A stretch of DNA of 16,650 bases, from the UHGV virus genome UHGV-0207574. One strand, given 5' to 3'. The position numbers were made by a program, and so were the translations under genes. Shown here in pieces: positions 1 to 15,826 of the stretch. The notes under the pieces are model-generated. The model was given only the letters and a program-made list of their open reading frames with translations, was not told where the DNA came from and ran no database searches. Origin of the DNA: a virus. The stretch's first letter is position 1; every line of letters starts with the position of its first letter.

Positions 1-73
1 GTTCACTTTAGCTCATCTCATAGCTGAAATTTTGCCGCTATTTTTTTACACTTAAGCGAAAAATGAGGTGATT

Positions 74-1009
74 ATGGAACCCCTTCGTGAAATAAGAAAT
101 CGGCTGCTTAACGGCTGGCAATTATCAAAAATGCATACTTTTGAAGTGGCTGCCAGGCATCAGTCCTTCGCCCTGGCGGCAGAGGAATTGTCGCTGAGCC
201 CCAGTGCGGTAAGTCACCGTATCAATCAGCTGGAAGAAGAATTGGGCATTCAGTTGTTTGTTCGTTCCCATCGCAAAGTGGAATTAACGCACGAGGGGAA
301 ACGTGTTTATTGGGCGCTAAAATCGTCGCTGGATACCCTGAACCAGGAAATTCTTGATATCAAAAATCAGGAGTTATCGGGAACGTTAACTCTGTATTCC
401 CGGCCCTCTATCGCCCAATGCTGGTTGGTGCCCGCATTAGGTGACTTTACACGCCGGTATCCGTCTATTTCGCTCACCGTGCTCACTGGTAATGACAACG
501 TCAATCTGCAACGTGCCGGAATCGATTTGGCGATCTACTTTGATGATGCGCCGTCAGCGCAACTCACTCATCACTTTCTGATGGATGAAGAAATCCTGCC
601 AGTATGTAGCCCGGAATACGCTCAAAGACATGCTTTAACCAACACGGTAATTAACCTGTGTCACTGTACGTTGCTCCATGACAGACAGGCATGGAGCAAC
701 GACTCCGGTACGGATGAATGGCATAGTTGGGCGCAACATTATGCGGTTAATTTGCCGACATCTTCTGGAATTGGCTTTGATCGTTCTGATTTAGCTGTTA
801 TTGCCGCGATGAATCATATTGGGGTGGCGATGGGAAGAAAACGCCTGGTACAAAAAAGGCTTGCCAGTGGTGAGCTCGTCGCGCCGTTTGGCGATATGAC
901 GGTGAAATGCCATCAGCATTATTACATCACCACATTACCGGGCAGGCAGTGGCCAAAAATTGAAGCGTTTATTATCTGGCTAAGAGAACAGGTAAAAACC
1001 ACTTCATAA
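74..1009 (+). CDS. dsdC: LysR-family transcriptional activator of D-serine utilisation (DsdC)
   Basis: The ORF track frame 68..1009 begins with GTG; the ATG at 74 follows a GAGG RBS and gives MEPLREIRNRLLNGWQLSKMHTFEVAARHQSFALAAEELSLSPSAVSHRINQLEEELG, an N-terminal LysR HTH followed by a substrate-binding domain. The sequence matches my recollection of E. coli DsdC. Stop TAA at 1007-1009. Confidence 0.88.
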   Translation: MEPLREIRNRLLNGWQLSKMHTFEVAARHQSFALAAEELSLSPSAVSHRINQLEEELGIQLFVRSHRKVELTHEGKRVYWALKSSLDTLNQEILDIKNQELSGTLTLYSRPSIAQCWLVPALGDFTRRYPSISLTVLTGNDNVNLQRAGIDLAIYFDDAPSAQLTHHFLMDEEILPVCSPEYAQRHALTNTVINLCHCTLLHDRQAWSNDSGTDEWHSWAQHYAVNLPTSSGIGFDRSDLAVIAAMNHIGVAMGRKRLVQKRLASGELVAPFGDMTVKCHQHYYITTLPGRQWPKIEAFIIWLREQVKTTS

Positions 1010-1103
1010 TGAATAAAACCACGAGTTCCTGGTGTGCCTTATTCGGCCTGCTAGTTCGAATTTAATTTACGGTTTTTATGTGGTTTTAGGGATAAACACA
1101 AGG

Positions 1104-1119
1104 ATGGTGTCCCCTGCAG
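1104..1119. repeat. att-right core (direct repeat of the argW 3' end)
   Basis: ATGGTGTCCCCTGCAG is identical to 13679-13694; flanking sequence diverges immediately on both sides. Confidence 0.8.
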
Positions 1120-1176
1120 ACATCTACTTGAGGCGGCAGGGGATTGATTGGAATGGTGTTTTTTAGATGTGAAAAA

Positions 1177-1198
1177 TATTTTACCCGCTATTTTACCC
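1177..1198 (+). repeat. Two direct copies of TATTTTACCC (1177-1186, 1189-1198) next to att-right and the torI 3' end; candidate recombination-protein binding sites
   Basis: Seen directly. The same octamer (as GGGTAAAA / TTTTACCC) recurs three times beside the integrase start at the other prophage end (13519-13563). Confidence 0.4.
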
Positions 1199-1393
1199 AT
1201 TGGCGCGGCTTAAGAGCTTATTTTTGAATTCACAATGGTCACGATATAACCATCTTGCTCGCCCGTGGATAACTTTGGCTTTTGGTAGGTCGCCGGACTT
1301 AATCCGGTCGTAGATGAAGGTTTTACCAAAGCCAGTATCGGCCATGATGAATTTCAAATCAACCAGTGAATCAGGCTGTAGTTCGTGTTGCAT
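1193..1393 (-). CDS. torI: Excisionase / recombination directionality factor TorI (also described as an inhibitor of the Tor response regulator)
   Basis: 66-aa ORF MQHELQPDSLVDLKFIMADTGFGKTFIYDRIKSGDLPKAKVIHGRARWLYRDHCEFKNKLLSRANG, a winged-helix Xis/AlpA-like small protein. Matches my recollection of KplE1 TorI. Sits next to att-right. Confidence 0.85.
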   Translation of the reverse strand: MQHELQPDSLVDLKFIMADTGFGKTFIYDRIKSGDLPKAKVIHGRARWLYRDHCEFKNKLLSRANG

Positions 1394-1412
1394 GAGTGCT
1401 ATCTCCGAATAT

Positions 1413-1428
1413 GGAATCGAACCTGCAA
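1413..1428. other. Internal 16-bp fragment identical to the argW variable-loop/T-arm region
   Basis: GGAATCGAACCTGCAA at 1413-1428 is identical to 13694-13709 inside the argW gene. It lies ~20 bp upstream of the torI start codon and ~300 bp inside the prophage. Confidence 0.5.
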
Positions 1429-1517
1429 ATCAGGCAATAAAAAGCCGCATTGATGCAGCAATGGTAGGTCTGGATATCTTGAGAAATGAACAGGCCTCAT
1501 CGAGTGTGAGACTGTGG

Positions 1518-1862
1518 TTAGTCCTTGCGTAGCTCGCTGATTCTTCTGTAAGTCTCTGGTGCTTTGTTTCCGTGTATCTTCATTTCAGACTTCAACAGAG
1601 CAACGAGGGAATCCCATTCGTTGAGGATGCCTTTGAATGCCGGAACGCGCTTTGCAACCTTGTCGAATGAATCTCTGATTTCTGGAATCTGCTCAACAAG
1701 CGCAACGCATCGCCGGAAATCTGCTGCGTCATGGGGAGCGCCGAAGTGATGACCATAGATATTCTTTTTCAGTCCACATGCGATTGAGGCAAGAGTTGCG
1801 CTACTTATGCCAACATCGCCAGTCGATTGCCATTTCAAAACCTTCATAGCCAAATCTGACAT
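1518..1862 (-). CDS. Hypothetical phage protein (114 aa)
   Basis: ORF track frame 1518..1889. The ATG at 1862 has a GGAGA RBS (GGAGACAAGAA ATG) and gives MSDLAMKVLKWQ...; the longer start at 1889 would lie inside a terminator hairpin. I do not recognise a family. Confidence 0.55.
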   Translation of the reverse strand: MSDLAMKVLKWQSTGDVGISSATLASIACGLKKNIYGHHFGAPHDAADFRRCVALVEQIPEIRDSFDKVAKRVPAFKGILNEWDSLVALLKSEMKIHGNKAPETYRRISELRKD

Positions 1863-1872
1863 TTCTTGTCTC

Positions 1873-1898
1873 CAATAAAAAACCGCCATCAGGCGGCT
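1873..1898 (-). terminator. Putative intrinsic terminator on the minus strand (GCCGCC-TGAT-GGCGG followed by TTTTTTATT)
   Basis: Minus-strand sequence CAAGCCGCCTGATGGCGGTTTTTTATTGGAG: a short GC stem, 4-nt loop and T-tract, immediately upstream of the RBS of the 1518..1862 ORF. An A-tract on the other side means it could act in both directions. Confidence 0.4.
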
Positions 1899-1962
1899 TG
1901 GTGTTCTTTCAGTTCTTCAATTCGAATATTGGTTACATTGTTTTCATATATGAATAAATAAA

Positions 1963-2142
1963 TTAGCTTTTTTCGTTGCCTTCGCGTTCTTTATTAATTT
2001 TGACAAACTCGTTTTTACCACGCTCTCCAAATGCGTCTTTAGAGTCGTTGTATCCGCAATCGCAGCACACATAATCACCAGACCATCCACGCATTGTTTT
2101 TTCTTTTGCAATATTTCCAGAACCGCATTTTGGACAAGACAT
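1963..2142 (-). CDS. Small zinc-ribbon protein (CPKC...CCDCG), 59 aa
   Basis: The ATG at 2142 is preceded by GGAGG (GGAGGTAGTGAT ATG) and gives MSCPKCGSGNIAKEKTMRGWSGDYVCCDCGYNDSKDAFGERGKNEF..., with two Cys pairs spaced as in a zinc ribbon. The ORF track start at 2175 is probably an overextension. Confidence 0.55.
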   Translation of the reverse strand: MSCPKCGSGNIAKEKTMRGWSGDYVCCDCGYNDSKDAFGERGKNEFVKINKEREGNEKS

Positions 2143-2238
2143 ATCACTACCTCCAAAGCATGAGTGAGATGACAACGTAACATTGATTGGAGATTAACAA
2201 TAGATTGCTGATGTAAAAGATATGTATAAGCTTCGCTT

Positions 2239-3066
2239 TCAAAGTGGAGGCTCTGGTAGCGGCATCCAGTGAGTTACGTCATCCAAGATATTTCCTGATA
2301 AATACGTGAAAGCTCTATATTTTTTGTAATCAATTGGATTTACAACCCAGTTCCAATATGCTGCCACGATTTCACCTTGACTAAATGCCAGTAACATTTT
2401 GGTGTCTTCCGGCATTCTCTCACTACAGCTTATCCAACCATCTGGAATTACCGGAGAGTTGCCAGATGGCTCGTTCAACTTGTAAGTTTGGCTTACAGGT
2501 TCGGCACCATGAAGCATGGCGTCGCTCCGCTCTATGCCATCCAGCGCGATTCGCAGTGCCTGAATTGTGGTAGAGCTATCGTTTGGGGCTATTCCATATC
2601 GCTCGAATACAGCTAAATGGTTGCGCATAATCTCAGGCGTAAGCTCTTTGTAAGCATAAGCAAGAGGCTCTGATGCATTATCCGGCACAACCGACGCAGG
2701 CGCGGCAGCATAAACAGGAATAACGTCCGCTTCACGAACCTGCATTGCATAGGCAACGATGTTTGCTGCGCTTGGCGTGTTCTTTGCGATCTCAGCGATA
2801 TAAGCAAAACCGCCAACAGACGCCGTTAACGATTTACGCTCCAGTTCATCGAAAAGCGTCAGGCCATCTACTGGCTTTTGCTCCCGGTGCATTCTGGTTA
2901 TTTCTTCGAAAAGGATTTTGTGTGGCCGGCTGTAAAATGAGTCAGGCTTCAGCATCGCCAGAACTTTCTGGACGCGCTCACTGCTGTCATCATCCAGAAG
3001 CAATCCACCAATCACCGCCTGCTCTGCCTCGATGCTATGGGGCGGCGCATAAAAATTATCGGTCAT
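2239..3066 (-). CDS. Chimeric replication-module protein: DnaB-helicase N-terminal domain fused to an Ead/Ea22-like region and a DUF551-like C-terminus; no helicase ATPase core
   Basis: The ATG at 3066 gives MTDNFYAPPHSIEAEQAVIGGLLLDDD ... LTASVGGFAYIAEIAKNTPSAANIVAYAMQVREA, which closely resembles the primase-interacting N-terminal domain of DnaB (PHSIEAEQ and SVGGFAY..KNTPSAANI motifs). The C-terminus (WISCSERMPEDT ... VTHWMPLPEPPL) resembles DUF551. Start overlaps the stop of the upstream O-like gene by 11 nt. Confidence 0.7.
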   Translation of the reverse strand: MTDNFYAPPHSIEAEQAVIGGLLLDDDSSERVQKVLAMLKPDSFYSRPHKILFEEITRMHREQKPVDGLTLFDELERKSLTASVGGFAYIAEIAKNTPSAANIVAYAMQVREADVIPVYAAAPASVVPDNASEPLAYAYKELTPEIMRNHLAVFERYGIAPNDSSTTIQALRIALDGIERSDAMLHGAEPVSQTYKLNEPSGNSPVIPDGWISCSERMPEDTKMLLAFSQGEIVAAYWNWVVNPIDYKKYRAFTYLSGNILDDVTHWMPLPEPPL

Positions 3067-3946
3067 CGTGTTCACCCTCACGAACTTTCAGGTAGGTATT
3101 GTCGTTAAGCAGGAAATCAAATCCCTTTTTGTGCCAGACGGTTCCGCGTTGATGGTTTGGGCGTTCTTCGAACATCCATCGGCAATTTTCGCCTACGTAG
3201 ATCAAATAATTTCTCCAGTCCTGCATCGTGAACCCATGCCCGTCAAGCTGGCGGGTTATCACTCCGGCTTTGCGCCAGAACGTTCGGATCTGGTTTTTAC
3301 GCTTGTCATTCAGTGCGCGGATTCTTGGCGCTTCAGGAAGGATTTCGTGGTAAGCATCGACAACATCCTGACAGCTGACGGAAGGTTTTTTCTTGTCAGA
3401 CTTTTTGTCTGCTGTGGCACTCTCTAATACGTCAGTATTAGAGATATTATTTATATTATTGTTTATGGACAACCGTTGGACAACCGTTGGACAATCTCCG
3501 CTGAGAGCCGCGCCATTACTGGTGTTTGCGTTGGACAACCGTTGGACAACCGTTGGACAATTTTTTGCCTGAAAATCGTCATATTTAACGATTGTAAACA
3601 GGCTAAATTTCTTCCCCATCGAGCAAATATTAAGCATCCCTTTCGACTCAAAAGTCCGTAATAAGCTCCGAACTTTGTTGTCGGGGATGAATGTTTCTCT
3701 GACCAGCGACGGGCGTCCAGTTATCATCTGACCGCGATCAACAGTTATCGGACCGATATCCGTATTGACGACAGTAGATTCGTGATTAGCCTTGAGGATT
3801 AAGTGAAGCCAAAGATGTACTGCCTGAGAGTCCTTATAGAGCCTGCTGTCCATAAACTGGCGGTGTATAGAGACATACCCCATACTGGATGCCTCCTGAT
3901 GTTGTACAGGGTTATGCCTGTAATCAGCTAACTTAACGACGCCCAT
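3056..3946 (-). CDS. Replication initiator, lambda O-like, with the origin iterons inside the gene
   Basis: 296-aa ORF with an N-terminal region resembling the phage O origin-binding domain (HLWLHLILKANHES...). A central linker is encoded by tandem 11-bp repeats, giving the duplicated peptide CPTVVQRLSN. Translationally coupled to the downstream gene. Confidence 0.7.
   Translation of the reverse strand: MGVVKLADYRHNPVQHQEASSMGYVSIHRQFMDSRLYKDSQAVHLWLHLILKANHESTVVNTDIGPITVDRGQMITGRPSLVRETFIPDNKVRSLLRTFESKGMLNICSMGKKFSLFTIVKYDDFQAKNCPTVVQRLSNANTSNGAALSGDCPTVVQRLSINNNINNISNTDVLESATADKKSDKKKPSVSCQDVVDAYHEILPEAPRIRALNDKRKNQIRTFWRKAGVITRQLDGHGFTMQDWRNYLIYVGENCRWMFEERPNHQRGTVWHKKGFDFLLNDNTYLKVREGEHDDR
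3465..3560. repeat. Putative replication origin: six iterons (unit TTGGACAACCG) in two clusters of three (3465-3496, 3531-3560)
   Basis: Direct tandem repeats seen in the sequence, lying inside the O-like gene as lambda ori lies inside O. Next to them in the gene's direction is an AT-rich tract (3440-3464) and a perfect 9-bp inverted repeat CTCTAATAC-GTCA-GTATTAGAG (3422-3443). Confidence 0.7.
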
Positions 3947-4094
3947 GTTTCACTCCTGCTTTGGCTAGTCTGTAAACACCAACAAGGCGCTCTGCGAACG
4001 CCCTGTTATTTGCTGCGGCTACCACTAATCCCTCAGGTGAATCAGGGTGTCGAATCTCTTCTTTTTCCTGGTATTTCTTACGACGTTTTGTCAT
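3933..4094 (-). CDS. Small basic hypothetical protein (53 aa), not in the ORF track (below the length cutoff)
   Basis: The ATG at 4094 is preceded by AGGAG (ACAGGAGTAATT ATG) and gives MTKRRKKYQEKEEIRHPDSPEGLVVAAANNRAFAERLVGVYRLAKAGVKHGRR. Its 3' end overlaps the RBS and start of the O-like gene. Lies between the cII-like and O-like genes. Confidence 0.4.
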   Translation of the reverse strand: MTKRRKKYQEKEEIRHPDSPEGLVVAAANNRAFAERLVGVYRLAKAGVKHGRR

Positions 4095-4128
4095 AATTAC
4101 TCCTGTGGATTGATCCAGTCTTTCTACA

Positions 4129-4407
4129 TCAGGCCTCGAAGAATTCGCCGTTCTTCGGGGCTTTTTCTTTTGTCAGCATTCTGGCTACTTTCTTAGCCAG
4201 TTCCGCCAACTCCTCGTCTTCAACACCCCATTCAAGAACAGCAAGAAGCATTCCCATTTTGGGGATGAAGCTGTCTTTCCATCGCGAAATTTGCGATTCA
4301 TTAATTCCTAACGCGTCAGCAACCTTTCGCTGACCACGTACAGCAATTCGATTCAGGATGTTGCTTGTAATTGCATTCGCTTTCTTGCGAGTACTTGTAA
4401 GTTCCAT
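4129..4407 (-). CDS. CII-like transcriptional regulator (92 aa)
   Basis: The ATG at 4407 with an AGGAAA RBS gives MELTSTRKKANAITSNILNRIAVRGQRKVADALGINESQISRWKDSFIPKMGMLLAVLEWGVEDEELAELAKKVARMLT..., closely resembling lambda CII (GVDKSQISRWKRDWIPKFSMLLAVLEWGV). The ORF track frame extends upstream to 4494. Confidence 0.75.
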   Translation of the reverse strand: MELTSTRKKANAITSNILNRIAVRGQRKVADALGINESQISRWKDSFIPKMGMLLAVLEWGVEDEELAELAKKVARMLTKEKAPKNGEFFEA

Positions 4408-4463
4408 ATGTAAGTATTTCCTTAACAAATAAGAAGTTATGCGCATCAACTTATGCGCGTTGT

Positions 4464-4509
4464 ATTCCCGCATTTCGGCGGGAATGAGGACCATGACTGT
4501 TAAAGAGCG
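4464..4509 (-). promoter_or_regulatory. nutR-like antitermination site: boxA CGCTCTTTAACA (4498-4509) and a boxB-like hairpin (4464-4485)
   Basis: Minus strand reads CGCTCTTTAACA, a 12-nt spacer, then ATTCCCGC-CGAAAT-GCGGGAAT (8-bp stem, GAAA-containing loop). It sits between the cro fragment and the cII-like gene, as nutR does in lambda. Confidence 0.5.
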
Positions 4510-4515
4510 GTGTTA

Positions 4516-4614
4516 CTATTTGTTTTTCTTGTTGCTTGGGAAAGGACGAACTTCCTCTCCAATCACACTGCCATCAGGCTTTACCGTAAACGACGCTATA
4601 CAGCCAGATGGCAA
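4516..4614 (-). pseudogene. cro gene, 3' fragment only
   Basis: Minus-strand frame ending at stop 4516-4518 translates to ...CIASFTVKPDGSVIGEEVRPFPSNKKNK, matching the lambda Cro C-terminus (INADGSVYAEEVKPFPSNKKTTA). There is no N-terminal part and no in-frame start. Confidence 0.65.
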
Positions 4615-4730
4615 TCAACTGCGCAGTGCATGAGAAAAAGCCCGCTCTGATGTTCAGCCTTGAAATGCCAGGTGATCAGATACTGGAAAAACTGGTAGGG
4701 CAGAAGTCTGGTGTTAACCCGAATATTTTT
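4611..4730 (+). pseudogene. Fragment of a DnaB-family helicase core (region just after Walker A), on the plus strand
   Basis: The first ~40 codons of the ORF track frame 4608..5093 read AINCAVHEKKPALMFSLEMPGDQILEKLVGQKSGVNPNIF, resembling E. coli DnaB (AMNLCENAAMLQDKPVLIFSLEMPSEQIMMRSL). The rest of that frame looks like non-coding alt-frame sequence. Confidence 0.4.
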
Positions 4731-4759
4731 TACCTTCCGGCGACAAATGACGCTGATGA

Positions 4760-5281
4760 CGGCTACTCGGGGAAAACATCCTTTCCTGCGATACGGAGAA
4801 GAGTATCCGGGAGCGATTTTCTGTTTACCAGGTGGCGGGGCAGCGTGCCGGAAACGACGATGATTTCGGTGAGGCCACCACCACCGCGCTGCGGGCCCGC
4901 ACAGAGGACGCATTTATTGCCCGTTACCGTCCGATGTATATCAGGCAGACAGGGCAGGCTACGGGGGCAGGCTGTATTGCCCGTGCGGACTTTGAAGCCC
5001 GGCAACGGGCGGCGCGGACGGATGAAACCACCTATGTGGTGCAGGGCTGGCGACAGGGTAACGGTACGCTGTGGCAGCCCAACCAGCGGGTGATTGTCTT
5101 CGATCCGGTCTGTGGTTTCGACAATACCGAACTGCTTGTCTCGGAAGTCACGTTTACTCAGGACCAGAATGGCACCCTGACGGAAATCCGTGTCGGCCCA
5201 CCTGATGCTTATCTGCCTGAACCCGAAGCCCCCGGCGCGCGGAAAAAGAAAAAAGCCAGAGTACAGGAGGACCCGTTCTGA
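4760..5281 (+). pseudogene. 5'-truncated baseplate-hub/tail gene (Mu gp44 / P2 gpD-like), C-terminal part
   Basis: The frame is open from the stop at 4757-4759 with only a GTG at 4832 as a possible start. Its stop overlaps the start of the downstream gpV-like gene (TGATG), and position and composition match the upstream member of a Mu-type baseplate cluster. Family assignment is by position, not recognised sequence. Confidence 0.45.
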
Positions 5282-5829
5282 TGAGGACGATTGAAGCCAT
5301 GCAGCGACAACTCCTCGGCCTGATTGGGCGGGCCGTGGTGAAAAGCATCAGTGCCGCCACGAAATGTCAGACCGTGGATGTGTCCCTGATTGCCGGTGAA
5401 CCCAAAGCCGGGATTGAACATCTTGAACCCTACGGTTTTACCGCAAGGGCAAACAGCGGTGCGGAAGCGGTGGTGTTGTTTCCGGATGGCGACCGTTCTC
5501 ATGCGGTGGTTGTTACGGTGTCGGACCGGCGTTACCGCCTGAAAGGGCTGCAGACGGGTGAGGTGGCTGTCTATGACGATCAGGGGCAGTCCGTGACGCT
5601 GACCCGGGAGGGGATCGTGGTGGACGGTGCAGGTAAAACGATCACGTTTCGCAATGCGCCCAGAGCACGTTTTGAAATGGACCTGGAAGTGACCGGACAG
5701 GTGAAAGACCTGTGCGACTCCGGCGGCACCACCATGTCAGCGATGCGGCTTGCCTATAACGGGCATCGTCACAGAGAGAACGGTCAGGGCAGTAACACCG
5801 ACAAACCTGATAAAGCGATGGAGGCATGA
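5281..5829 (+). CDS. Baseplate assembly/spike protein, gpV-like (Mu gp45-like)
   Basis: 182-aa ORF, translationally coupled on both sides, GC-rich, with a C-terminal DSGGTT motif that I recall from P2 gpV-type proteins. Confidence 0.65.
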   Translation: MRTIEAMQRQLLGLIGRAVVKSISAATKCQTVDVSLIAGEPKAGIEHLEPYGFTARANSGAEAVVLFPDGDRSHAVVVTVSDRRYRLKGLQTGEVAVYDDQGQSVTLTREGIVVDGAGKTITFRNAPRARFEMDLEVTGQVKDLCDSGGTTMSAMRLAYNGHRHRENGQGSNTDKPDKAMEA

Positions 5830-6254
5830 TGGTACTGTGGCTGACGGTGAACGGTAAACGCACCTGCGCCAGCGCACCGCTGGATCCGCTGACCCGCGCC
5901 GTGGTGATTTCCCTGTTTACCTGGCGGCGGGCGGAGCCTGATGACAACGCCGACGTCCCGATGGGATGGTGGGGGGATACCTGGCCTGCGGTACAGAATG
6001 ACCGTTACGGCTCCCGGCTGTGGCTGCTTCAGCGCAGCAAACTGACCAATCAGCTGGTGCAGACGGTAAGGGGGTATATCCGCGAATGTCTGCAATGGAT
6101 GATTGATGACGGCGTGGTGTCCCGTATTGATCTGGATATCCGCCGCACCGGGATTAATGAACTGGGTAACAGTATCACTCTCTGGCGTCGTGACGGACCG
6201 GTAATGATTTCTTTTGATGATCTGTGGAGTGCGATAACGCATGGCGGACAGTGA
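5826..6254 (+). CDS. Baseplate protein, phage GP46 family (gpW-like)
   Basis: 142-aa ORF with start overlapping the upstream stop (ATGA). Size and position between the V-like and J-like genes are typical of a Mu-type baseplate cluster. Confidence 0.6.
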   Translation: MMVLWLTVNGKRTCASAPLDPLTRAVVISLFTWRRAEPDDNADVPMGWWGDTWPAVQNDRYGSRLWLLQRSKLTNQLVQTVRGYIRECLQWMIDDGVVSRIDLDIRRTGINELGNSITLWRRDGPVMISFDDLWSAITHGGQ

Positions 6255-7299
6255 ATTTCAGCGCCCGACGCTGGCAGAAAATATCAGTATGCTCCGTAAC
6301 GATTTATTCGCCAGGCTGGACGTCAGCGACACGCTCCGGCGCATGGATGAAGACGTGCGGGCAAAGGTGTATGCGGCGGCGCTGCATACGGTTTACGGGT
6401 ACATCGATTATCTGGCAATGAACATGCTGCCTGACCTGTGCGATGAGTCCTGGCTGGCGCGACATGCTGCGATGAAACGGTGTCCGCGCAAGGGGGCCAC
6501 GGCTGCCAGCGGGTATATGCGCTGGGAAGGTGTCAGCGATGGCCTGAAGGTGACCGCCGGGAGTGTTATTCAGCGCGATGACCTGGTTCAGTACACGGCA
6601 ACTGCCGATGCAACCAGCTCCGGTGGTGTCCTGCGCGTGCCGATCGCCTGCTCAAGTTCAGGCGCGGTCGGTAACGCTGACGACGGTACGTCATTAATCC
6701 TGGTCACGCCGGTGAATGGTCTGCCGTCTTCCGGTGTGGCTGACACCCTGACAGGCGGATTTGATACTGAAGATCTGGAAACGTGGCGCGCCCGCATCAT
6801 TGAGCGGTATTACTGGACGCCGCAGGGCGGGGCTGACGTGGACTATGTCGTCTGGGCTAAAGAAGTGCCCGGCATTACCCGCGCATGGACATACCGACAC
6901 TGGATGGGAACGGGGACTGTCGGTGTGATGATTGCCAGCAGTGACCTGATTAACCCCATTCCGGAAGAATCAACGGAAACGGCAGCAAGACAACATATCG
7001 GGCCACTGGCCCCGGTGGCAGGCTCTGATTTGTATGTATTCAGGCCGGTGGCGCACAAAGTGGATTTTCATATCCGCGTGACGCCGGACACACCGGAAAT
7101 ACGGGCTGCCATTACCGCAGAGTTGCGTTCATTCCTGCTGCGTGATGGTTATCCGCAGGGAGAGCTGAAGGTATCGCGTATCAGTGAAGCGATTTCCGGT
7201 GCGAACGGGGAATACAGCCATCAGTTGCTTGCTCCGGCGGACAATATCTCCATTGCAAAAAATGAACTGGCGGTTCTGGGGACGATTTCATGGACGTGA
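6241..7299 (+). CDS. Baseplate J-like protein (Mu gp47-like)
   Basis: 352-aa ORF in the conserved V-W-J-I order, overlapping its neighbours. Confidence 0.65.
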
Positions 7300-7874
7300 C
7301 AAACGATGATTACATCCGTCTGTTGTCGGCACTGCTGCCGCCCGGTCCGGCGTGGTCAGCCAGCGATCCGGCGATTGCCGGTGCGGCACCGTCATTAACT
7401 CGTGTTCATCAGCGTGCGGATGCCCTGATGCGGGAGCTGGATCCGCGCACCACCACCGAACTGATAAATCGCTGGGAGCGTCTGTGCGGCCTGCCGGATG
7501 AATGTATTCCCGCAGGGACACAGACCCTTCGCCAGCGTCAGCAACGGCTGGATGCGAAGGTTAACCTGGCGGGTGGCATCAACGAGGATTTTTATCTTGC
7601 ACAGCTTGCTGCCCTGGGCAGACCAGATGCCACCATCACGCGATACGACAAAAGCACGTTCACCTGCTCATCGGCCTGTACTGACGCTGTGAATGCGCCG
7701 GAATGGCGGTATTACTGGCAGGTCAACATGCCAGCCGCCGCCAACACCACCTGGATGACATGTGGCGATCCCTGTGATTCCGCACTGCGTATCTGGGGTG
7801 ACACCGTTGTCGAGTGTGTGCTTAACAAACTCTGCCCGTCGCATACCTACGTAATTTTTAAATATCCGGAGTAA
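7290..7874 (+). CDS. Tail protein, Mu gp48 / YmfQ-like (P2 gpI position)
   Basis: 194-aa ORF directly downstream of the J-like gene and upstream of the tail-fibre gene. Confidence 0.6.
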
Positions 7875-7877
7875 TCC

Positions 7878-8519
7878 ATGCATCGTATAGACACGAAAAC
7901 CGCGCAGAAGGATAAGTTCGGCGCGGGTAAGAACGGTTTTACCCGTGGTAACCCCCAGACCGGCACGCCTGCCACCGATCTGGATGATGACTACTTTGAC
8001 ATGTTGCAGGAGGAGCTTTGCAGCGTTGTGGAGGCCTCCGGTGCCAGCCTGGAGAAGGGGCGGCATGACCAGCTGCTTACCGCGCTTCGTGCGCTGCTGT
8101 TAAGCCGCAAGAATCCGTTTGGCGATATCAAATTGGACGGCACGGTGCAAAAGGCTCTCGAAAACCTTGGTTTGGGAGAAGCGGCTAAAAGAAATGTAGG
8201 GACAGGGGCGAATCAGATACCTGATATGGGTAGCTTCACGCTTTCTGTTTCAGGTACTGGATATCAAAAATTGCCATCCGGTTTAATTATTCAATGGGGG
8301 CCAATTGATGTTCCGCTGACGTCTCAGGACACAGTAACCTATTTTCCGATTGCATTTCCGAATAGATGTCTGCGGGTATTTGCGACTCAGGATTACACTC
8401 CCGGCAGTGCAAATGTTGGCTATATAGCTTGTGCCGGTTATAACCAGGACCCGGTGAAATTTATTTCCAGAGCAGGCGTACCCGGTCTCGGTGCTTCATT
8501 TTTCGCATTAGGGTGTTAA
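7878..8519 (+). CDS. Tail fibre protein (short; constant N-terminal part plus variable C-terminal part)
   Basis: GGAG RBS. The N-terminus [74 protein letters not shown] is the conserved tail-fibre N-terminal region of Mu/P2-type fibres. GC content drops sharply after ~8180. Confidence 0.7.
8155..8180. promoter_or_regulatory. Candidate relic serine-invertase crossover site (gix/hix-like) inside the tail-fibre gene
   Basis: CTCTCGAAAACC-TT-GGTTTGGGAGAA is an imperfect 26-bp dyad with the AAACC-NN-GGTTT core typical of Gin/Hin/Pin sites as I recall them. It lies at the constant/variable junction of the fibre and coincides with the GC drop. Confidence 0.35.
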
Positions 8520-8545
8520 TTTCTTTTAACTTTATGGAGTGAAAA

Positions 8546-8986
8546 ATGAATCACATATATTCCGCGACTACAAACTCTTTCTATCCCTTGGAGATGAAAG
8601 AGGATTACACGCAAGCTGGCTCATGGCCAGATGATGCTGTTGAAGTTGATGAGCAAGTGTATATTGAGTTTTCCGGATTACCGCCGAAAGGAAAAATCCG
8701 TATCGCTGGAGAAAATGGTTTTCCTGCATGGTCTGAAATTCCACCACCAACACATGAGGAACAGATTGCTGCAGCCGAACTGAAAAAGCAGCAATTGATT
8801 AATCAGGCCAACGATTATATGAACAGTAAACAATGGGCTGGTAAAGCGGCTATTGGTCGTCTGAAAGGTGAGGAACTGGCGCAATATAATTTGTGGCTGG
8901 ATTATCTGGACGCACTGGAGCTGGTCGATACTTCCAGTGCGCCAGATATTGAATGGCCTACTCCTCCGGCAGTTCAGGCCAGATGA
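8546..8986 (+). CDS. Tail fibre assembly protein (Tfa/U-like)
   Basis: 146-aa ORF with a GGAG RBS, ending ...SSAPDIEWPTPPAVQAR, a typical Tfa C-terminus. Immediately downstream of the tail-fibre gene. Confidence 0.7.
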   Translation: MNHIYSATTNSFYPLEMKEDYTQAGSWPDDAVEVDEQVYIEFSGLPPKGKIRIAGENGFPAWSEIPPPTHEEQIAAAELKKQQLINQANDYMNSKQWAGKAAIGRLKGEELAQYNLWLDYLDALELVDTSSAPDIEWPTPPAVQAR

Positions 8987-9260
8987 CATCCGGCGCGGTG
9001 CTGGTATCTGTTGCCGTCACCGCGTCAATGTAATCCAGCACAGTGTTAAGTCGGGAGGTCTCTGCCTGCATCAGCTTCCGCCCAGCCCGTAATTTCAGTT
9101 GAATCAGACTAATGGAAGCCATTGCAGTATCAATCAGTGACTGACGCTGTGCTTCTGCCGCGTCTACTGCGGCGTGATGCTGTGCCTCAGTATCGGTCAC
9201 CCATTTCTCACCATCCCATTTATCGTATGGCGTTAATGGGGCGATAGTCGCGGGACGCAT
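8958..9260 (-). pseudogene. Second tail fibre assembly gene (C-terminal half only), convergent with and overlapping the first
   Basis: Minus-strand frame MRPATIAPLTPYDKWDGEKWVTD...TSTAPDVIWPELPEE has a Tfa-like C-terminus. It is blocked upstream by a stop at 9318-9320, so at most ~120 codons remain. Overlaps the 3' end of the plus-strand tfa by ~29 bp. Confidence 0.5.
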
Positions 9261-9284
9261 ACAAACATAACCCCTGGATGTTAT

Positions 9285-9566
9285 GTGTCTATCGAGAATC
9301 AAAGTGGAAGTCCTTATGTTAAGTATAAGACAGGAATCACTTATAACGATAATCAGTTAGTATATGTATCTATCACTGTTGATGATAATATCAGCACTTG
9401 GTTCTGGAGGGGGTTTGTTGTGGGCAATGATGCATTTAAGTTATCGTCTGCAGATAGAGGAGATATTACAATAAACAACGAATCAGGGCATTTGATAGTC
9501 AATACCGCAATTCTATCAGGAGATATAGTCACTCTAAGAGGAGGAGAAATTAGGTTGGTATTATAG
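9285..9566 (+). other. Orphan ORF (93 codons, GTG start, no internal Met), possibly a 3' gene fragment
   Basis: VSIENQSGSPYVKYKTGITYNDNQ...DIVTLRGGEIRLVL is rich in N/T/S/V/I, like the beta-rich tip of a fibre. There is no ATG and only a weak RBS. It lies in low-GC DNA between the tfa remnant and gtrC. Confidence 0.25.
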
Positions 9567-9570
9567 CTTG

Positions 9571-9592
9571 TGCGCGCCATGATTGGCGCGCA
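9571..9592. repeat. Perfect GC-rich palindrome TGCGCGCCA-TGAT-TGGCGCGCA between the convergent stop codons of the orphan ORF and gtrC
   Basis: 9-bp perfect inverted repeat with a 4-nt loop and no adjacent T-tract on either strand. Could be a terminator-like hairpin or a protein-binding palindrome. Confidence 0.45.
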
Positions 9593-9600
9593 ATTTAAAC

Positions 9601-10932
9601 TTAGTGCTTTACATCGCTATTGTCTTGATTTCTTTGAATTATTTTATAAATTAAAAAAACGACTGTTATGTATAAGCAAAGGTCGAACGAAAAATACATT
9701 CCAAATAAATGCTTGCTTAAATCTCTATATCCTTCCCCGAAAAATGACACATAAAATTGAGATATTCCAAAAAGAGATACTACAAATAAAGATGCCTTTA
9801 TTTTATTATTTCTAATAAAAATAGAAGCAATAAAAAATAATAACAATGATATAAATCTAATGTTTTTAAATATATTGTCTTTTATGTTAGTAATAGTCGT
9901 TAGTATGTTTGATTCTCCATATATTACGTGTAGTTTTTTATATACATGGAAATAATTTTCTTTATACTGAGACATCACACCATCATCAAATGGAAGTTTG
10001 AAGATGGTGCTTGGTTTGCTAACCAATAAAAAGAGTGCATTCGAAAACGTTTCATCTTTATGAGATTCGAAACATTCCGTTCCAACTTCTGTTGGGGTTG
10101 CGCCAAATGATATGTCGAATTTATTACCCCAAGCATCTAACCCAACACACTTATCATCAACATACGATGGCATTTTATACCCGTTGTTTTTCATATAAAG
10201 ATAACTACCGAAGTATGTTGCATGGTACTTATTTAATTCAACAACACCTTTTGAATAAGATATTGCAAATATTGACGCAAGCAAGCACACCACGCATATT
10301 ACAGATTTAATAATTAGTTTGTGTCTATCAAAAAAAATATAATATGAATACACTATTAGTGGGGTTAATATAAATTGATTTTTAGCAGTAGATATTATTA
10401 GCAACGAAAAAAATAGCAAAAGCATAGATTTATTGTTTTTGCATGTTAATGAATACACCAAAAATGGAAGGAAAATTATAACTATTTGCTCTTGATAGAA
10501 TGATGCAAACATTGACAGTGTTGATGAAGAACACATAAGAAAAGCTAAAATAAAGAATGTAAATAAAGTTACATACCTTTCTGTTTTTATATATGAAGTA
10601 AATATCGCATATAATGAATAAATATATATTACTTTTAGAAATAACGATAACACCCTAGCATCAAGATATTCAGTAAAAATGCTAATAAACAGGACGTATG
10701 TATACAAAATATAACTATATGAACTTATATACTCATAGCTATCAATTGAATCAATATGACCTTTCAATTTATACAATAAAGGTAAGTCATATGTAAATGC
10801 TGGTATGTCTTCAATTAATGGCTTAATGGCTCTTCCGAAATCAGATGTATTTAACATCATTATGTTTTTAGATAAGGCGCAAATAATCAAAACAAAAGAT
10901 ATATACAATGATACTTTTATTGCTTTATTCAT
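9601..10932 (-). CDS. gtrS: Serotype-specific O-antigen glucosyltransferase, GtrC-type polytopic membrane protein (K-12 equivalent yfdI/gtrS)
   Basis: 443-aa, very AT-rich, highly hydrophobic multi-pass ORF. Third gene of a gtrA-gtrB-gtrC operon and translationally coupled to gtrB. The family is defined by position and topology rather than sequence conservation. Confidence 0.7.
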
Positions 10933-11849
10933 TTTTTGACTCTCTTGATGATGTATTTCGGGCGTTTTTTGGTTTCAATGTATGTGCGTCCAATATATTC
11001 ACCTAATACTCCTATTCCAATCATCTGAATTCCACCTAAAAACAGTATTGAAACAAGTAGTGAAGGATATCCCCTAACAGCATTTCCAAATATGATAGTA
11101 TCTAAAATCATCCACGCCCCATAAATAAATGCTACACTGGCTACCACTAACCCTATGTATGTCCAGATGCGAAGAGGGAATGTGGAAAAGCTTGTAATAC
11201 CCTCAAGTGCTAAATTCCAAAGTTTCCATCCATTAAATTTTGTATCTCCAGCAATTCTTTCCGCTCGCACGTATTCAACAATATCTGTCTTTCCTCCTAC
11301 CCAGCTCAGAATACCTTTCATGAAAAGGTTTCGTTCTGGCATAAGTTTAATATTTTCGACAACATCACGGCTCATCAGCCTGAAATCACCAACATTCTCT
11401 TCAATTTTAGGATTGCTTATTTTATTGTGGAGCTTATAGAACCACTCAGCCGTTTTTCGCTTCAGGCGTCCATCAGTTGAGCGGTCAGATCTTTTAGCAA
11501 GAACCATATCAGCACCTGCTTGCCATTTTTCAATAAGATGAGGAATAACCTCAATCGGGTCTTGCAGGTCAACATCAATTGGGATTATCGCATCCCCGGT
11601 TGCATGGTCTAACCCTGCAAACAATGCTGGTTCTTTACCAAAGTTGCGTGTAAATGACAGCGGAACAACTAGAGGATCTGAAACAGCCAGAGCATTAATG
11701 ATTGACTCCGTAGCGTCTTTGCTGCCGTCATTTATGAAAACGATTTCCACTTCATATGACTTCAATTCTTCGAATTCACGTACCGTTTTATAAAAAATTG
11801 GTATCGCTTCTTCTTCATTGAAGACAGGAACTACAAGAGATATCTTCAT
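10929..11849 (-). CDS. gtrB: Bactoprenol glucosyltransferase GtrB (GT2 family)
   Basis: 306-aa [23 protein letters not shown]...INDGSKDAT...DVDLQDP: a GT2 catalytic domain followed by C-terminal transmembrane helices, as in GtrB/YfdH. Confidence 0.85.
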
Positions 11850-12208
11850 TTCGCATCCCTAAAGACAATGAACTTTGAATAGACGAAACCGCACACCAGG
11901 CTGATGGCGGAGAAGGTGACAAGAGTTATCATCGGGGGAAGTGCGCATCTATCAGCAGCCCATCCAACAGTAGCACTCAGTGTCCCCATGAACCCAACAT
12001 ATAGCATGTAGCGCATCGTTGTAGTCGATGCCTTGAATGTGAATTTTGCATTCGCGAAGAAGCTAAAGCTCACAGCCACAACGAAACCTGCGAAGTTTGC
12101 AAGAGCTTGGTTTGTATGCGCGACATAGATACAAACACCAAAAACCACCCAGTGTATAAGGGTGTTCAGCACACCAATAGAGGTGTACTTTGCAAATAGC
12201 TTTAACAT
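11846..12208 (-). CDS. gtrA: GtrA family flippase for undecaprenyl-phosphate glucose
   Basis: 120-aa small four-helix membrane protein, first gene of the operon, overlapping gtrB by 4 nt. Confidence 0.8.
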
Positions 12209-12360
12209 TTCTTCTATCAGCTAATAATCAAAGGAATGAAGTCTATCATCCAAGTCTTAATCGATCGATACTTGCTGTGGTTGATGAGACAAAACTTATA
12301 CACACAAAGCTTTGCACTGGATTGCAAGACTTTGTGCTATTCGATAGTTGTTAAGGTCGC

Positions 12361-13518
12361 TCACTCCACCTTCTCATCAAGCCAGTCCGCCCACCATTGC
12401 ATCATTTCTCTGCGTTTATCGAGATACTGAGCATGGTTGTAAATCCCACGCACAGATCCGCCGTTTGCATGTGCCAGTTGCACTTCAATAGCGTCAGCAG
12501 GCCATTCGTGCTCGTTCATAATCGTGCTGAATTCATGCCTGAATCCGTGACCGCTTTCCAGACCCTCATAGCCGATTTGTTTGATCACAAGCAGTACCGC
12601 GTTCTCGCAGATTGGCTTCTTCTTATCGTTGCGCCCGGCAAAAACAAACTCTGAGACTGGTTTGGTGATGGAGCTTAGCGTAGTGAGAAGTTCAACTACC
12701 TGGTCTGACATAGGAACCACATGAATTTTGCGTCCTTTCATCACACTGGCGTCGATGGTGATAATCCTATTTTCAAAATCGACGTTCTTCCATAGCATGG
12801 AACGAAGCTCTTTCGTTCTTAGGGCTGTGTAGCGTAAAACTTTGGTCGCAATGAGCGATACGATACTTCCTGAAAATGTTGCCAGTGCTTTGTTGAATGC
12901 CGGGATCTGGTCTGCAGGAAGAAACGGGAAGTTCTTCTTGCGGTATCCCTTCATGGCGTCAGCAAGGTCAGGTGCCGGGTTATATTTAGCCCTTCCGGTG
13001 ACAATAGCGTAACGGAAAACCTCGCCGCATCTTCTGCGTGCTTTGTTGGCTCGTTCCATTGCACCGCGATCTTCAAACCTGCGGATTACTTCCAGCAGTT
13101 GCATCGGCTCAATATCCTGAATTTCAAGGCCGCCAATGATAGGTAAAATGTCGTCGTCAAACATTTTGGCAAGTTCAGTTGCATACCCTACTGACCATAC
13201 TTGCTTCTTGTGCTCGTACCATTCCTTGTAAATCGCACTAAAGGAATTGTTGTTAGACGAAGCCTTTTTCGCCTTTACAGGATCGATGCCAACCGAGATG
13301 TCTTTCCTCGCAGTCCATGCTTTATCCCTTGCCTCCTGCAAAGTCATAAGCGGATATTTTCCGACGGTCAGGATTTTCTCCTTACCGTCAATCTTGTAGC
13401 GAAGCTGCCATACCTTTTTCCCTGACACAGGGACATAAAGGTACAGGCCATTACCATCGAGAAGGCGGTATGGTTTTTCTTTCGGCTTTGCTGCTTCAAT
13501 CTGCTTAACGGTGAGCAT
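12361..13518 (-). CDS. intS: Tyrosine-family site-specific integrase (IntS-like)
   Basis: From the ATG at 13518 (MLTVKQIEAAKPKEKPYRLLDGNGLYLYV...) the protein has a P4-type integrase N-terminus and a C-terminal catalytic domain (...HGFRHEFSTIMNEH...GIYNHAQYL). The ORF track starts at an upstream GTG at 13554. Adjacent to the tRNA. Confidence 0.85.
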   Translation of the reverse strand: MLTVKQIEAAKPKEKPYRLLDGNGLYLYVPVSGKKVWQLRYKIDGKEKILTVGKYPLMTLQEARDKAWTARKDISVGIDPVKAKKASSNNNSFSAIYKEWYEHKKQVWSVGYATELAKMFDDDILPIIGGLEIQDIEPMQLLEVIRRFEDRGAMERANKARRRCGEVFRYAIVTGRAKYNPAPDLADAMKGYRKKNFPFLPADQIPAFNKALATFSGSIVSLIATKVLRYTALRTKELRSMLWKNVDFENRIITIDASVMKGRKIHVVPMSDQVVELLTTLSSITKPVSEFVFAGRNDKKKPICENAVLLVIKQIGYEGLESGHGFRHEFSTIMNEHEWPADAIEVQLAHANGGSVRGIYNHAQYLDKRREMMQWWADWLDEKVE

Positions 13519-13563
13519 GGGTAAAAATCCGGTGGGTAAAATTATTTTATCCACTTTTTACCC
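13519..13563. repeat. Octamer repeats GGGTAAAA (13519-13526, 13534-13541) and inverted TTTTTACCC (13555-13563) at the integrase 5' end; candidate arm-type or RDF binding sites
   Basis: Seen directly. The same motif occurs twice next to att-right (1177-1198). Confidence 0.4.
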
Positions 13564-13678
13564 GTCATGGAGTGCGGCTGTCAACGATCTGAAGCGAACC
13601 ATGACGAACTGTAAATCTACGGAATGCTTGATATTCAGGGGATTTTGCGGACTGGTACGGATGGGAGCGAACTGATAA

Positions 13679-13694
13679 ATGGTGTCCCCTGCAG
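13679..13694. repeat. att-left core overlapping the 3' end of argW
   Basis: ATGGTGTCCCCTGCAG, identical to 1104-1119. Confidence 0.8.
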
Positions 13695-13754
13695 GAATCG
13701 AACCTGCAATTAGCCCTTAGGAGGGGCTCGTTATATCCATTTAACTAAGAGGAC
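13680..13754 (-). tRNA. argW: tRNA-Arg (anticodon CCU)
   Basis: Minus-strand 75-nt sequence GTCCTCTTAGTTAAATGGATATAACGAGCCCCTCCTAAGGGCTAATTGCAGGTTCGATTCCTGCAGGGGACACCA. It has the acceptor stem, an anticodon loop CU-CCU-AA, a GGTTCGATTCC T-arm and an encoded CCA end. Confidence 0.9.
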
Positions 13755-13765
13755 AATGCGGCATG

Positions 13766-13794
13766 AGTATACCCGCTAATGGAGTGCGGGGTAA
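13766..13794 (-). promoter_or_regulatory. Putative argW promoter (-35 TTACCC, 17-bp spacer, -10 TATACT)
   Basis: Minus-strand hexamers ~12 nt upstream of the mature tRNA 5' end, followed by a GC-rich discriminator. Weak -35 element. Confidence 0.3.
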
Positions 13795-13829
13795 GTACGC
13801 TGCCGCTCGATTGCTTAAACCCTCGCCAT

Positions 13830-14762
13830 TTATGCCGGGTTTTTATAATTTTTCTTAATGTTTTCCGCACGTTCTGCTTTTTGGCGTGCTTCTGCTTTAC
13901 GCTTATTGCTCATGTCGTTACGAATCTGTGCATGACTCATTAACGCGAAGATAAAGGTGCCGCCGCAGATGTTCCCCGCTAAAGTAGGTAGTGCGAAGGG
14001 CCAGATGAAATCGCTCCAGTGCAGCGTACCGTTAAACACCAGATAGAGGATTTCAACAGAACCGACCACGATATGGGTGGTGTCACCCAGGGCAATAAGC
14101 CAGGTCATCAATATAATCACCACAATCTTTGCCGCACCCGCTGCAGGAAACATCCAAACCATAGTGGCGATCAGCCAGCCGGAAATGATCGCGTTGGCAA
14201 ACATCTCGCTGGGGGTGTTCTTCATCACATCCATGCCGATTTTGACAAATGCATCGCGAGTTTCTTCATTGAAGATAGGCATATATTCAAATGCCCACGC
14301 CGCAATACCTGTCCCGAGAATATTACCCAGCAGCACGACGCCCCATAACCGTATAAGTAAGCCGACGTTGCTCATTGTCGGTTTTTGCATGACGGGTAGT
14401 ACCGCAGTCACGGTATTTTCGGTAAATAATTGCTGGCGGGCCATAATGACGATAATAAAACCAAAGGTATAACCGAGATTCTCCAGCAAGAAGCTGCCCG
14501 GCACACCTTCCAGTTCGACTTGAAATATCCCTTTTGCCAGTAACGAAGCGCCCATCGACAGACCCGCCGCAATGGCTGACCACAGTAGCGCCATTGCGTC
14601 GCGTTCCAGCTCTTTTTCACCATCCTGGCGGATATGCTCATGAATTGCCATCGCCCGGGAGGGGAGTCGGTCTTCATCTATTTCTATTTTTTTGCCGCGC
14701 TCTTTTTCTTCGCTCTCAACTTCAATTTCGTCGCTGTGTTGATCAATTTTGTCGTTGTCCAT
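13830..14762 (-). CDS. yfdC: Formate/nitrite transporter (FNT) family inner-membrane protein
   Basis: 310-aa ORF with an acidic N-terminal extension followed by a polytopic membrane core. Matches my recollection of E. coli YfdC in size and position next to argW. Confidence 0.8.
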   Translation of the reverse strand: MDNDKIDQHSDEIEVESEEKERGKKIEIDEDRLPSRAMAIHEHIRQDGEKELERDAMALLWSAIAAGLSMGASLLAKGIFQVELEGVPGSFLLENLGYTFGFIIVIMARQQLFTENTVTAVLPVMQKPTMSNVGLLIRLWGVVLLGNILGTGIAAWAFEYMPIFNEETRDAFVKIGMDVMKNTPSEMFANAIISGWLIATMVWMFPAAGAAKIVVIILMTWLIALGDTTHIVVGSVEILYLVFNGTLHWSDFIWPFALPTLAGNICGGTFIFALMSHAQIRNDMSNKRKAEARQKAERAENIKKNYKNPA

Positions 14763-14943
14763 GGTCTCTTCTCTTGAATTAGCACGTATAGCTAAAGCGT
14801 AGCGGCTTTTTTGCTCGCAACTGACGGGAGTTACTCTGAAAATGTAGAAAAGGCTGCGTTTGCCTTTTTCTGTTTCTATAGAATCAAGTAGCCTACAGGG
14901 CGGCGATTACCAGGCTATGATCAAATCAGCAAATCAGGGCGTC

Positions 14944-14971
14944 TGGACATCAGTTGACGTGCTGTTACAAT
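14944..14971 (+). promoter_or_regulatory. Putative sigma-70 promoter for mlaA (-35 TGGACA, 16-bp spacer, -10 TACAAT)
   Basis: Hexamers at 14944-14949 and 14966-14971, ~85 bp upstream of the mlaA start. Confidence 0.35.
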
Positions 14972-15055
14972 CGCCCACACCTAAACAGGCGGATACGGTA
15001 TCGTTCCGTCATGGATGGCAAACTGCATAAGCCATAAAAAAACAGGGAGACATTT

Positions 15056-15811
15056 ATGAAGCTTCGCCTGTCGGCGCTTGCTCTGGGAACTACGCTTCTG
15101 GTGGGGTGTGCGAGTTCCGGTACAGATCAGCAAGGGCGTTCTGACCCGTTAGAAGGGTTCAACCGCACCATGTACAACTTCAACTTCAATGTATTAGACC
15201 CGTATATTGTTCGACCGGTCGCTGTCGCCTGGCGTGATTATGTTCCGCAACCGGCGCGTAACGGTTTGAGCAACTTTACTGGCAACCTTGAAGAACCTGC
15301 GGTGATGGTTAACTACTTCTTGCAGGGCGACCCTTATCAGGGGATGGTCCACTTTACCCGCTTTTTCCTGAACACCATTTTGGGGATGGGCGGTTTTATT
15401 GATGTTGCAGGGATGGCGAACCCGAAACTGCAACGGACTGAACCTCACCGCTTCGGTAGTACGCTTGGTCATTATGGCGTGGGTTATGGGCCTTACGTTC
15501 AGTTACCGTTCTACGGTAGCTTCACGCTGCGTGATGACGGTGGTGATATGGCGGATGGTCTTTACCCGGTTCTTTCCTGGCTGACCTGGCCGATGTCTGT
15601 GGGTAAATGGACGCTTGAAGGGATCGAAACCCGCGCTCAGCTGCTGGATTCCGATGGTCTGCTGCGTCAGTCGTCCGATCCTTATATTATGGTGCGCGAA
15701 GCGTACTTCCAGCGTCATGATTTCATCGCTAATGGCGGCGAACTCAAACCGCAGGAAAATCCGAACGCACAAGCGATTCAGGATGATTTAAAAGATATTG
15801 ATTCTGAATAA
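15056..15811 (+). CDS. mlaA: Outer-membrane lipoprotein MlaA/VacJ (phospholipid asymmetry maintenance)
   Basis: AGGGAG RBS; MKLRLSALALGTTLLVGCASSG has a lipoprotein signal peptide with lipobox LVGC. 251 aa, matching my recollection of MlaA/VacJ. Confidence 0.88.
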   Translation: MKLRLSALALGTTLLVGCASSGTDQQGRSDPLEGFNRTMYNFNFNVLDPYIVRPVAVAWRDYVPQPARNGLSNFTGNLEEPAVMVNYFLQGDPYQGMVHFTRFFLNTILGMGGFIDVAGMANPKLQRTEPHRFGSTLGHYGVGYGPYVQLPFYGSFTLRDDGGDMADGLYPVLSWLTWPMSVGKWTLEGIETRAQLLDSDGLLRQSSDPYIMVREAYFQRHDFIANGGELKPQENPNAQAIQDDLKDIDSE

Positions 15812-15826
15812 GAAACAAATAAAAAA

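Follow-up and report, generated by a model that had tools for sequence, protein, structure and literature searches.

The window, by which we mean the whole 16,650-nt stretch of DNA analyzed here, includes a complete 12.6-kb prophage remnant of the KplE1/CPS-53 type, carrying intS and torI at opposite ends. The 16-nt KplE1 core (CTGCAGGGGACACCAT) is duplicated at 1104–1119 and 13679–13694, the second copy lying inside an intact argW gene for tRNA-Arg(CCU) (13680–13754, minus strand). This tRNA was the only Rfam match in the window at gathering thresholds; no family was reported over the nut or oop regions. KplE1 is a defective prophage that has no CI module and yet is excisable through IntS and TorI (PMC2951348). 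The allele in the window is like KplE1/CPS-53 of E. coli K-12 in its argW site, 16-nt core repeats, intS, gtrABS, yfdK-type fibre-assembly gene, torI, and dsdC flank, and neither prophage has a CI module (for KplE1, PMC2951348). The two differ in their interiors: yfdM–yfdT in K-12, as opposed to an eag/DUF551 region, an inverted cro'-cII-O-dnaB' block, and Mu-like baseplate genes in the window. The Mu-like baseplate genes are also found in E. coli strain 1409, and the combination of interior genes as a whole is absent from 5426 complete E. coli genomes. Encoded on the plus strand at 4832–8519, the Mu-like genes comprise the C-terminal half of gpP, gp45/V, gp46, J/gp47, gp48, and a short fibre gene; all are intact except the gpP-like gene, which is cut at a junction (J3, discussed below), and there is no late promoter upstream of these baseplate genes.

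The inverted block (2733–4589) is read on the minus strand and begins with a 3' fragment of cro (4516–4589), the 74 nt of which correspond to nt 122–195 of the 195-nt cro gene of the HK620/mEpX2 type. The fragment encodes residues 42–64 and the stop codon and reads (F)TVKPDGSVIGEEVRPFPSNKKNK; at 23 residues, it is shorter than the approximately 27 proposed when the region was first read from sequence only. Alignment to lambdoid Cro proteins, which that sequence-only reading had called for, supports its assignment to Cro, with 100% identity to residues 42–64 of mEpX2 Cro and 68% identity to residues 42–63 of lambda Cro. The last 18 positions of the Pfam Cro profile (PF09048, positions 42–59) also match (E-value 1.6e-5, below the gathering cut-off). 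The helix-turn-helix part is gone, and the fragment is not a complete Cro, which would comprise about 60–66 aa with its helix-turn-helix.

At the nucleotide level, homology to every intact relative ends at 4589/4590, and the boundary drawn earlier at 4614 runs 25 nt past 4589 into unrelated DNA. The sequence between the cro break and the cII ATG (182 nt, 4408–4589) is 100% identical to coliphages HK620, HK630, HF4s, and HZ41, which places the elements described below far beyond chance. Over the longer stretch 2731–4589, identity to phage mEpX2 is 99.3% with zero indels. The intergenic stretch between cro' and cII also folds much better than shuffled controls (z = −3.95).

This intergenic stretch contains a nutR site. 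Its boxA (CGCTCTTTAACA; 4498–4509, minus strand) conforms to the consensus CGCTCTT(T)A, lies inside the nutR annotated in HK620, and coincides with a "putative Nut boxA" in mEpX2. The boxB stem-loop (4464–4485, minus strand) starts 12 nt downstream of boxA and is predicted by folding to form an 8-bp stem (AUUCCCGC/GCGGGAAU) with a 6-nt CGAAAU loop. Both elements are thus present where a boxA and a GAAA-loop hairpin had been noticed, and the HK620 nutR (9423–9468; GenBank AF335538) projects onto window positions 4464–4509, exactly from boxA through the hairpin. The possibility that the hairpin is an intrinsic terminator was ruled out because no T-run follows the stem.

The function of the hairpin is indicated by its distribution. 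In mEpX2, the putative Nut boxA is annotated both after cro and upstream of N, and mEpX2 as well as the CT02 and C1 prophages have two copies of the same boxA and hairpin, one following cro and the other lying between PL and N. A scan of IMG/VR with the exact boxA-boxB pattern returned at least 120 loci; among the matches listed, two copies are found in 83 of 120 loci, always on opposite strands and facing outward, at spacings of 1.13–2.96 kb that fall into several discrete size classes. These paired copies are nutL and nutR flanking interchangeable immunity modules. In most of the listed loci, the first ORF downstream of the nutL-type copy starts with M[TA]VVITYLADDNARNRRRARRQAQ..., or, in a longer rendering, M[TA]VVITYLADDNARNRRRARRQAQREQ..., an arginine-rich N motif. 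From the paired outward-facing copies and this ORF, it follows that the hairpin is the boxB of a specific N/nut pair. The window has a single nut copy only, and tblastn found no N with the arginine-rich motif anywhere in it.

A second, smaller hairpin, GCGCAU-AAGUUG-AUGCGC (4441–4458, minus strand, from the predicted fold), lies directly downstream of the tR1 mark annotated in HK620 (9468–9474 in the GenBank annotation, 4458–4464 in the window). It had been recorded as a palindrome and half-repeat; the palindrome ATGCGCAT is indeed present at 4439–4446, its partner GCGCAT is at 4453–4458, and the two are better described as the arms of one conserved hairpin. In relatives a hairpin persists here despite sequence changes, which are either compatible with G.U pairing or wholesale. 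In the variant GCGCAUC...GGUGCGU the stem is kept by G.U pairs, while more diverged phages have ACGCAUC-AACC-GAUGCGU or GCAGACC-CCAC-GGUCUGC at this position. Lambda has GUAUGCA-UUUAUU-UGCAUAC there, at the same distance from cII. Based on its position and on what is known of lambda tR1, the small hairpin is probably part of the tR1 pause/termination region.

The minimum-energy fold additionally pairs boxA, in the form CUCUUUAACA, with the Shine-Dalgarno region of cII (UGUUAAGGAA), joining 4499–4508 to 4418–4427 (minus strand). This pairing is probably due to chance, as it occurs only in close relatives and is absent in diverged nutR-cII leaders and in lambda.

The cII gene (4129–4407, minus strand) is intact and encodes 92 aa, and the CII-like gene assignment made from the sequence is confirmed by a full-length match to Pfam Phage_CII (residues 1–91 to PF05269 positions 1–91, E-value 1.2e-42). 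The product differs from mEpX2 CII by one residue and has the recognition-helix stretch SQISRWK in common with lambda CII. The 20-nt leader from the Shine-Dalgarno sequence to the ATG is identical to that of lambda.

More control hardware remains than had been listed previously, namely pRE and an oop-like antisense RNA, both on the opposite strand. The pRE-type, CII-dependent promoter (4384–4423, plus strand) corresponds to HK620 pRE (9509–9548, minus strand), with the HK620 CII-binding site (9525–9548) projecting onto window positions 4384–4407. Its layout is TTGC at 4385–4388, N6, TTGT at 4395–4398, a 13-nt spacer, and AAGTAT at 4412–4417. The CII site annotated in mEpX2 (TTGC-N6-TTGC, 4361–4374) was rejected, being 24 nt too far from the −10 element in comparison with lambda; the HK620-annotated site at 4385–4398 is, judged by sequence layout, the position-equivalent one. 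The oop-like RNA (about 4105–4171, plus strand), predicted by a terminator scan, overlaps the 3' end of cII and has a strong terminator stem at 4131–4163 followed by a T-run. Around its 5' end and promoter −10 region, 30 of 33 nt are identical to lambda.

Downstream of cII are a 53-aa ORF like HK97 gp53 and HK620 hkaW (3933–4094, minus strand), identical to mEpX2 gp46, and an intact O-like replication initiator (3056–3946, minus strand) with three amino acid differences from mEpX2 O. Within the O-like gene, iterons with an 11-nt unit (TGGACAACCGT) occupy 3455–3506 and 3521–3572; these clusters resemble a lambdoid ori and are accompanied by an intact O, while a functional helicase gene is absent. 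The last gene of the block is represented by dnaB codons 1–112 (2733–3066, minus strand), which encode the N-terminal domain only (Pfam DnaB, PF00772; tblastn 100% over DnaB 1–112). These codons form part of an in-frame DnaB-N::DUF551 fusion ORF of 275 aa (2239–3066, minus strand; Pfam DnaB PF00772 and DUF551), the remainder of which is the C-terminal two-thirds of an early-left DUF551 protein. The exact fusion protein is on record in seven metagenome contigs.

A separate, internal dnaB fragment (4590–4766, plus strand; nt about 668–850, codons about 223–283; Pfam DnaB_C) lies on the other side of the cro break, where, read along the cII strand, it immediately precedes cro' as antisense DNA. 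It is 98.4% identical to mEpX2 30183–30366 and keeps the ancestral orientation. A tblastn extension of this fragment to 4826 was treated as spurious, since nucleotide homology ends at about 4766–4772. The CT02 prophage (L001, E. coli CT02, 3093–5167), to which the cII block is most closely related, has undergone an independent deletion that fused the N-terminal region of dnaB to a portal gene; breakage within dnaB thus seems to recur in these prophages.

The module order and many details are familiar from lambda. The elements nutR, tR1, cII, pRE, and oop occur in the same order, the boxA core is GCTCTT, a second small hairpin comes after that of boxB, and the pRE geometry is TTGC-N6-TTG(C/T), 13 nt, AAGTAT. 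Unlike in lambda, where boxB has a 5-bp stem and a GAAAA loop, boxB in the window has an 8-bp stem and a CGAAAU loop, and relatives pair it with a different N, with arginine-rich motif NARNRRRARRQAQ. The window also differs from lambda in the longer CUCUUUAACA form of boxA and in a replication helicase that is DnaB-type rather than lambda P.

The closest match is to HK620 (AF335538), which, like mEpX2, HK630, and HF4s, has the same early-right module, cro-nutR-tR1-pRE-cII. Unlike HK620, the window lacks cro nt 1–121, OR1–3/PR, cI, PL, nutL, and N; moreover, the block is inverted relative to the rest of the prophage and abuts the antisense dnaB fragment. N, cI, cIII, Q, and a second Cro were not found in the window by tblastn with mEpX2 N, cI, Cro, cIII, and Q and lambda N, cI, Cro, and P as queries, and nothing else in the window was significant, in agreement with the earlier statement that cI, PR, and N are missing. 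We consider it very likely that the block is what remains, transcriptionally orphaned, of the early-right control region of a lambdoid (P22-like) phage with HK620 immunity, now lying within the 12.6-kb defective prophage of the KplE1/CPS-53 type at argW. The sequence-only reading, which described an orphaned early-right region with a cro 3' fragment, a nutR-like site, and cII, is upheld by the HK620 annotation of nutR, tR1, and pRE. It was right that the 5' end of cro, the operators, the repressor, and N are absent, with the refinement that the upstream DNA was not merely lost: the block is inverted and joined to an internal dnaB fragment. The control hardware does survive without N, but not without all of the proteins that use it, because CII, the user of pRE, is still encoded. 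The cro'-nutR-cII block is an already known and annotated HK620-type module, and no new system is represented here.

The rearrangement can be resolved by comparison with other prophages inserted at argW. The canonical arrangement, as seen in TW10590, has torI, eag, and DUF551 on the minus strand, continuing to cI (minus), followed by cro, cII, and a replication gene on the plus strand. In the window, cro'-cII-O-dnaB' is on the torI strand, whereas in TW10590 it is on the opposite strand; the block, cro'-nutR-cII-O-dnaB(1–112), is therefore inverted relative to canonical prophages, while the internal dnaB fragment and the tail genes keep the ancestral orientation. The window is a mosaic of the following homologous segments: 1–1515 from KplE1 of E. 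coli 1409 (dsdC, torI; 98.4%); 1105–2271 and 2476–2732 from the left end of the TW10590 same-site prophage (torI, a hypothetical gene, the "Eag protein" gene, and the first and last parts of DUF551; 98.5% and 99.6%); 2731–4589 from mEpX2 29851 down to 27993, inverted (99.3%); 4588–4772 from mEpX2 dnaB 30183–30366, direct (98.4%); and 4764–16650 from the strain 1409 KplE1 (from the middle of the gpP-like gene through V, gp46, J, gp48, the fibre gene, yfdK, gtrABS, intS, and argW; 99.7%).

Three illegitimate junctions bound the block, with about 2 nt of microhomology each. At J1 (2732–2733), DUF551 residue about 104 is joined in frame to inverted dnaB codon 112 across a "TT" microhomology, creating the fusion ORF. 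At J2 (4589–4590; CAGGCTTTACCGTAA meeting ACGACGCTATACAGCC), inverted cro nt 122 is joined to dnaB nt 668 across an "AA" microhomology. At J3 (4764–4767), dnaB nt about 850 meets the middle of the Mu gpP-like baseplate gene. The pairing of mEpX2 position 27993 with 30183 is as predicted if the inversion broke within cro and dnaB. A simple conservative inversion was ruled out, since dnaB nt 337–667 and all DNA between the DUF551 break and cro nt 121 have been lost; these losses call for at least two deletions besides the inversion, or for one non-conservative event, with DNA having to be lost at J1 and J3. The history we propose begins with the inversion of a segment reaching from mid-cro into dnaB, which is seen directly in the block and its junctions. 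Deletions would then have taken the 5' end of cro, OR/PR, cI, N, and nutL from one flank and, from the other, what was left of dnaB together with most of the late genes; this order of events is the probable one.

The orientation of the block, opposite to that in canonical prophages, could also be produced by a site-specific invertase acting on a programmed invertible segment, and apparent remains of a tail-fibre inversion region are found in the same prophage (8546–9302). We regard this as highly improbable. No inverted repeats were found at the ends of the inverted block, where the junctions share only about 2 nt, and the events are therefore judged illegitimate rather than programmed. In addition, the junctions fall inside the coding sequences of cro, dnaB, and DUF551, destroying all three, an invertase gene was not seen among the ORFs examined between the att cores, and all copies found have a single orientation.

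These copies also bear on the reality of the arrangement. Phage modules are repeated in E. coli genomes, where assemblers break, and two metagenome contigs (L007 and L008) end at window position 4034, as might be seen if two phage-derived sequences had been joined into an assembly chimera. Such a chimera is scarcely credible, because J2 also occurs in L006 and L130, two contigs that were assembled separately in different ENA assemblies and that follow the window colinearly across J2 and J3. The colinearity of L006 covers window 1–8375 (99.93% identity, with the same junctions), and that of L130, which was found by a scan for J2, covers 3916–9731. All differences between the window and these contigs are confined to the tail-fibre/tfa region at 8234–9195, and there are zero differences among copies in the cro'-cII block. 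Given this confinement, the allele is real, clonal, and recent. It is also rare, with J2 spanned by none of 5426 complete E. coli genomes and not found among GTDB species-representative genomes.

In an intact phage, transcripts from PR cross cro and produce nutR RNA (boxA and boxB), on which N and host Nus factors convert RNA polymerase to read through tR1 into cII-O-dnaB. CII then switches on pRE, which lies on the opposite strand, and oop RNA counteracts cII. In the window, PR and OR are absent upstream of the nut site, and a consensus scan detected no sigma-70-like promoter on either strand in 3900–6000 and only chance-level matches in 6000–9700. On the minus strand, the DNA upstream of cro' is antisense: the dnaB fragment comes first, followed by baseplate and fibre genes over about 4.4 kb, and this untranslated DNA of about 4.4 kb separates cro' from the nearest minus-strand gene. 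A stray antisense transcript from the tail-gene side would be untranslated and, going by lambda biology, without N it would be ended by Rho before or at tR1. With neither PR nor N, nutR itself would be unusable. Thus nutR, the tR1 region, cII, pRE, oop, O, and ori persist at phage-level identity but lack both a promoter in front and N. Considering the crude consensus promoter scan together with general knowledge of Rho on untranslated RNA, we infer that the block is most likely silent and, in answer to the question raised earlier of what drives transcription of cII/O/DnaB-N, that most likely nothing dedicated does so.

The preservation of the block could be read differently, as intact cII, O, and 53-aa ORFs are also predicted by selection for function, and the copies are too alike for a test of purifying selection. 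In this alternative, low-level or conditional transcription, from gtr/tfa-side read-through or a cryptic promoter, yields CII, which acts at the resident pRE or in trans, biasing incoming HK620/Sf6-type phages toward lysogeny. The intact cII with its lambda-identical ribosome-binding region, the SQISRWK stretch common with lambda CII, and a pRE of correct geometry that is now aimed at intact Mu-like baseplate and tail-fibre genes are all compatible with it. We nevertheless consider retention for function unlikely, given that the consensus scan revealed no promoter-like site upstream, that there is no N for passing the tR1 region, and that the 4.4 kb of antisense untranslated DNA intervenes before the nearest minus-strand gene. 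The allele, unrepresented at J2 in the complete E. coli genomes, also looks clonal and recent. Because cII, the 53-aa ORF, and O do not differ between the copies found, a recent origin is the best explanation for their intactness, and the condition of the block as a whole probably reflects this rather than retained function.

The inversion has turned pRE toward the dnaB fragment and, beyond it, the baseplate and tail-fibre genes, and this is the only, and mildly, novel possibility that the layout suggests here. The rewired pRE might drive sense transcription of the Mu-like baseplate, tail-fibre, and tail-fibre-assembly genes (4832–8986), which otherwise have no promoter, with CII from a superinfecting HK620/Sf6/mEpX2-type phage, or from rare resident read-through, switching them on. 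We think this very unlikely; if true, resident tail-fibre parts could be donated to, or interfere with, an incoming phage.

The silent relic that we favor provides a base-resolved example of lambdoid prophage decay, in which an inversion and flanking deletions at 2-nt microhomologies leave regulatory RNA and DNA elements perfectly preserved without their input promoter or cognate N. It also documents a KplE1/CPS-53 allele that complete E. coli genomes do not carry. In genome scans, a chromosomal nut site or cII gene found in isolation should accordingly be interpreted as a prophage scar rather than an active circuit; beyond annotation, the importance of the locus is small.

At the far end of the tail genes, the yfdK-type tail-fibre assembly gene (8546–8986, plus strand) overlaps tail-to-tail with a truncated tail-fibre assembly gene (8958–9302, minus strand), and the region 8234–9302 resembles a leftover invertible fibre segment without an invertase.
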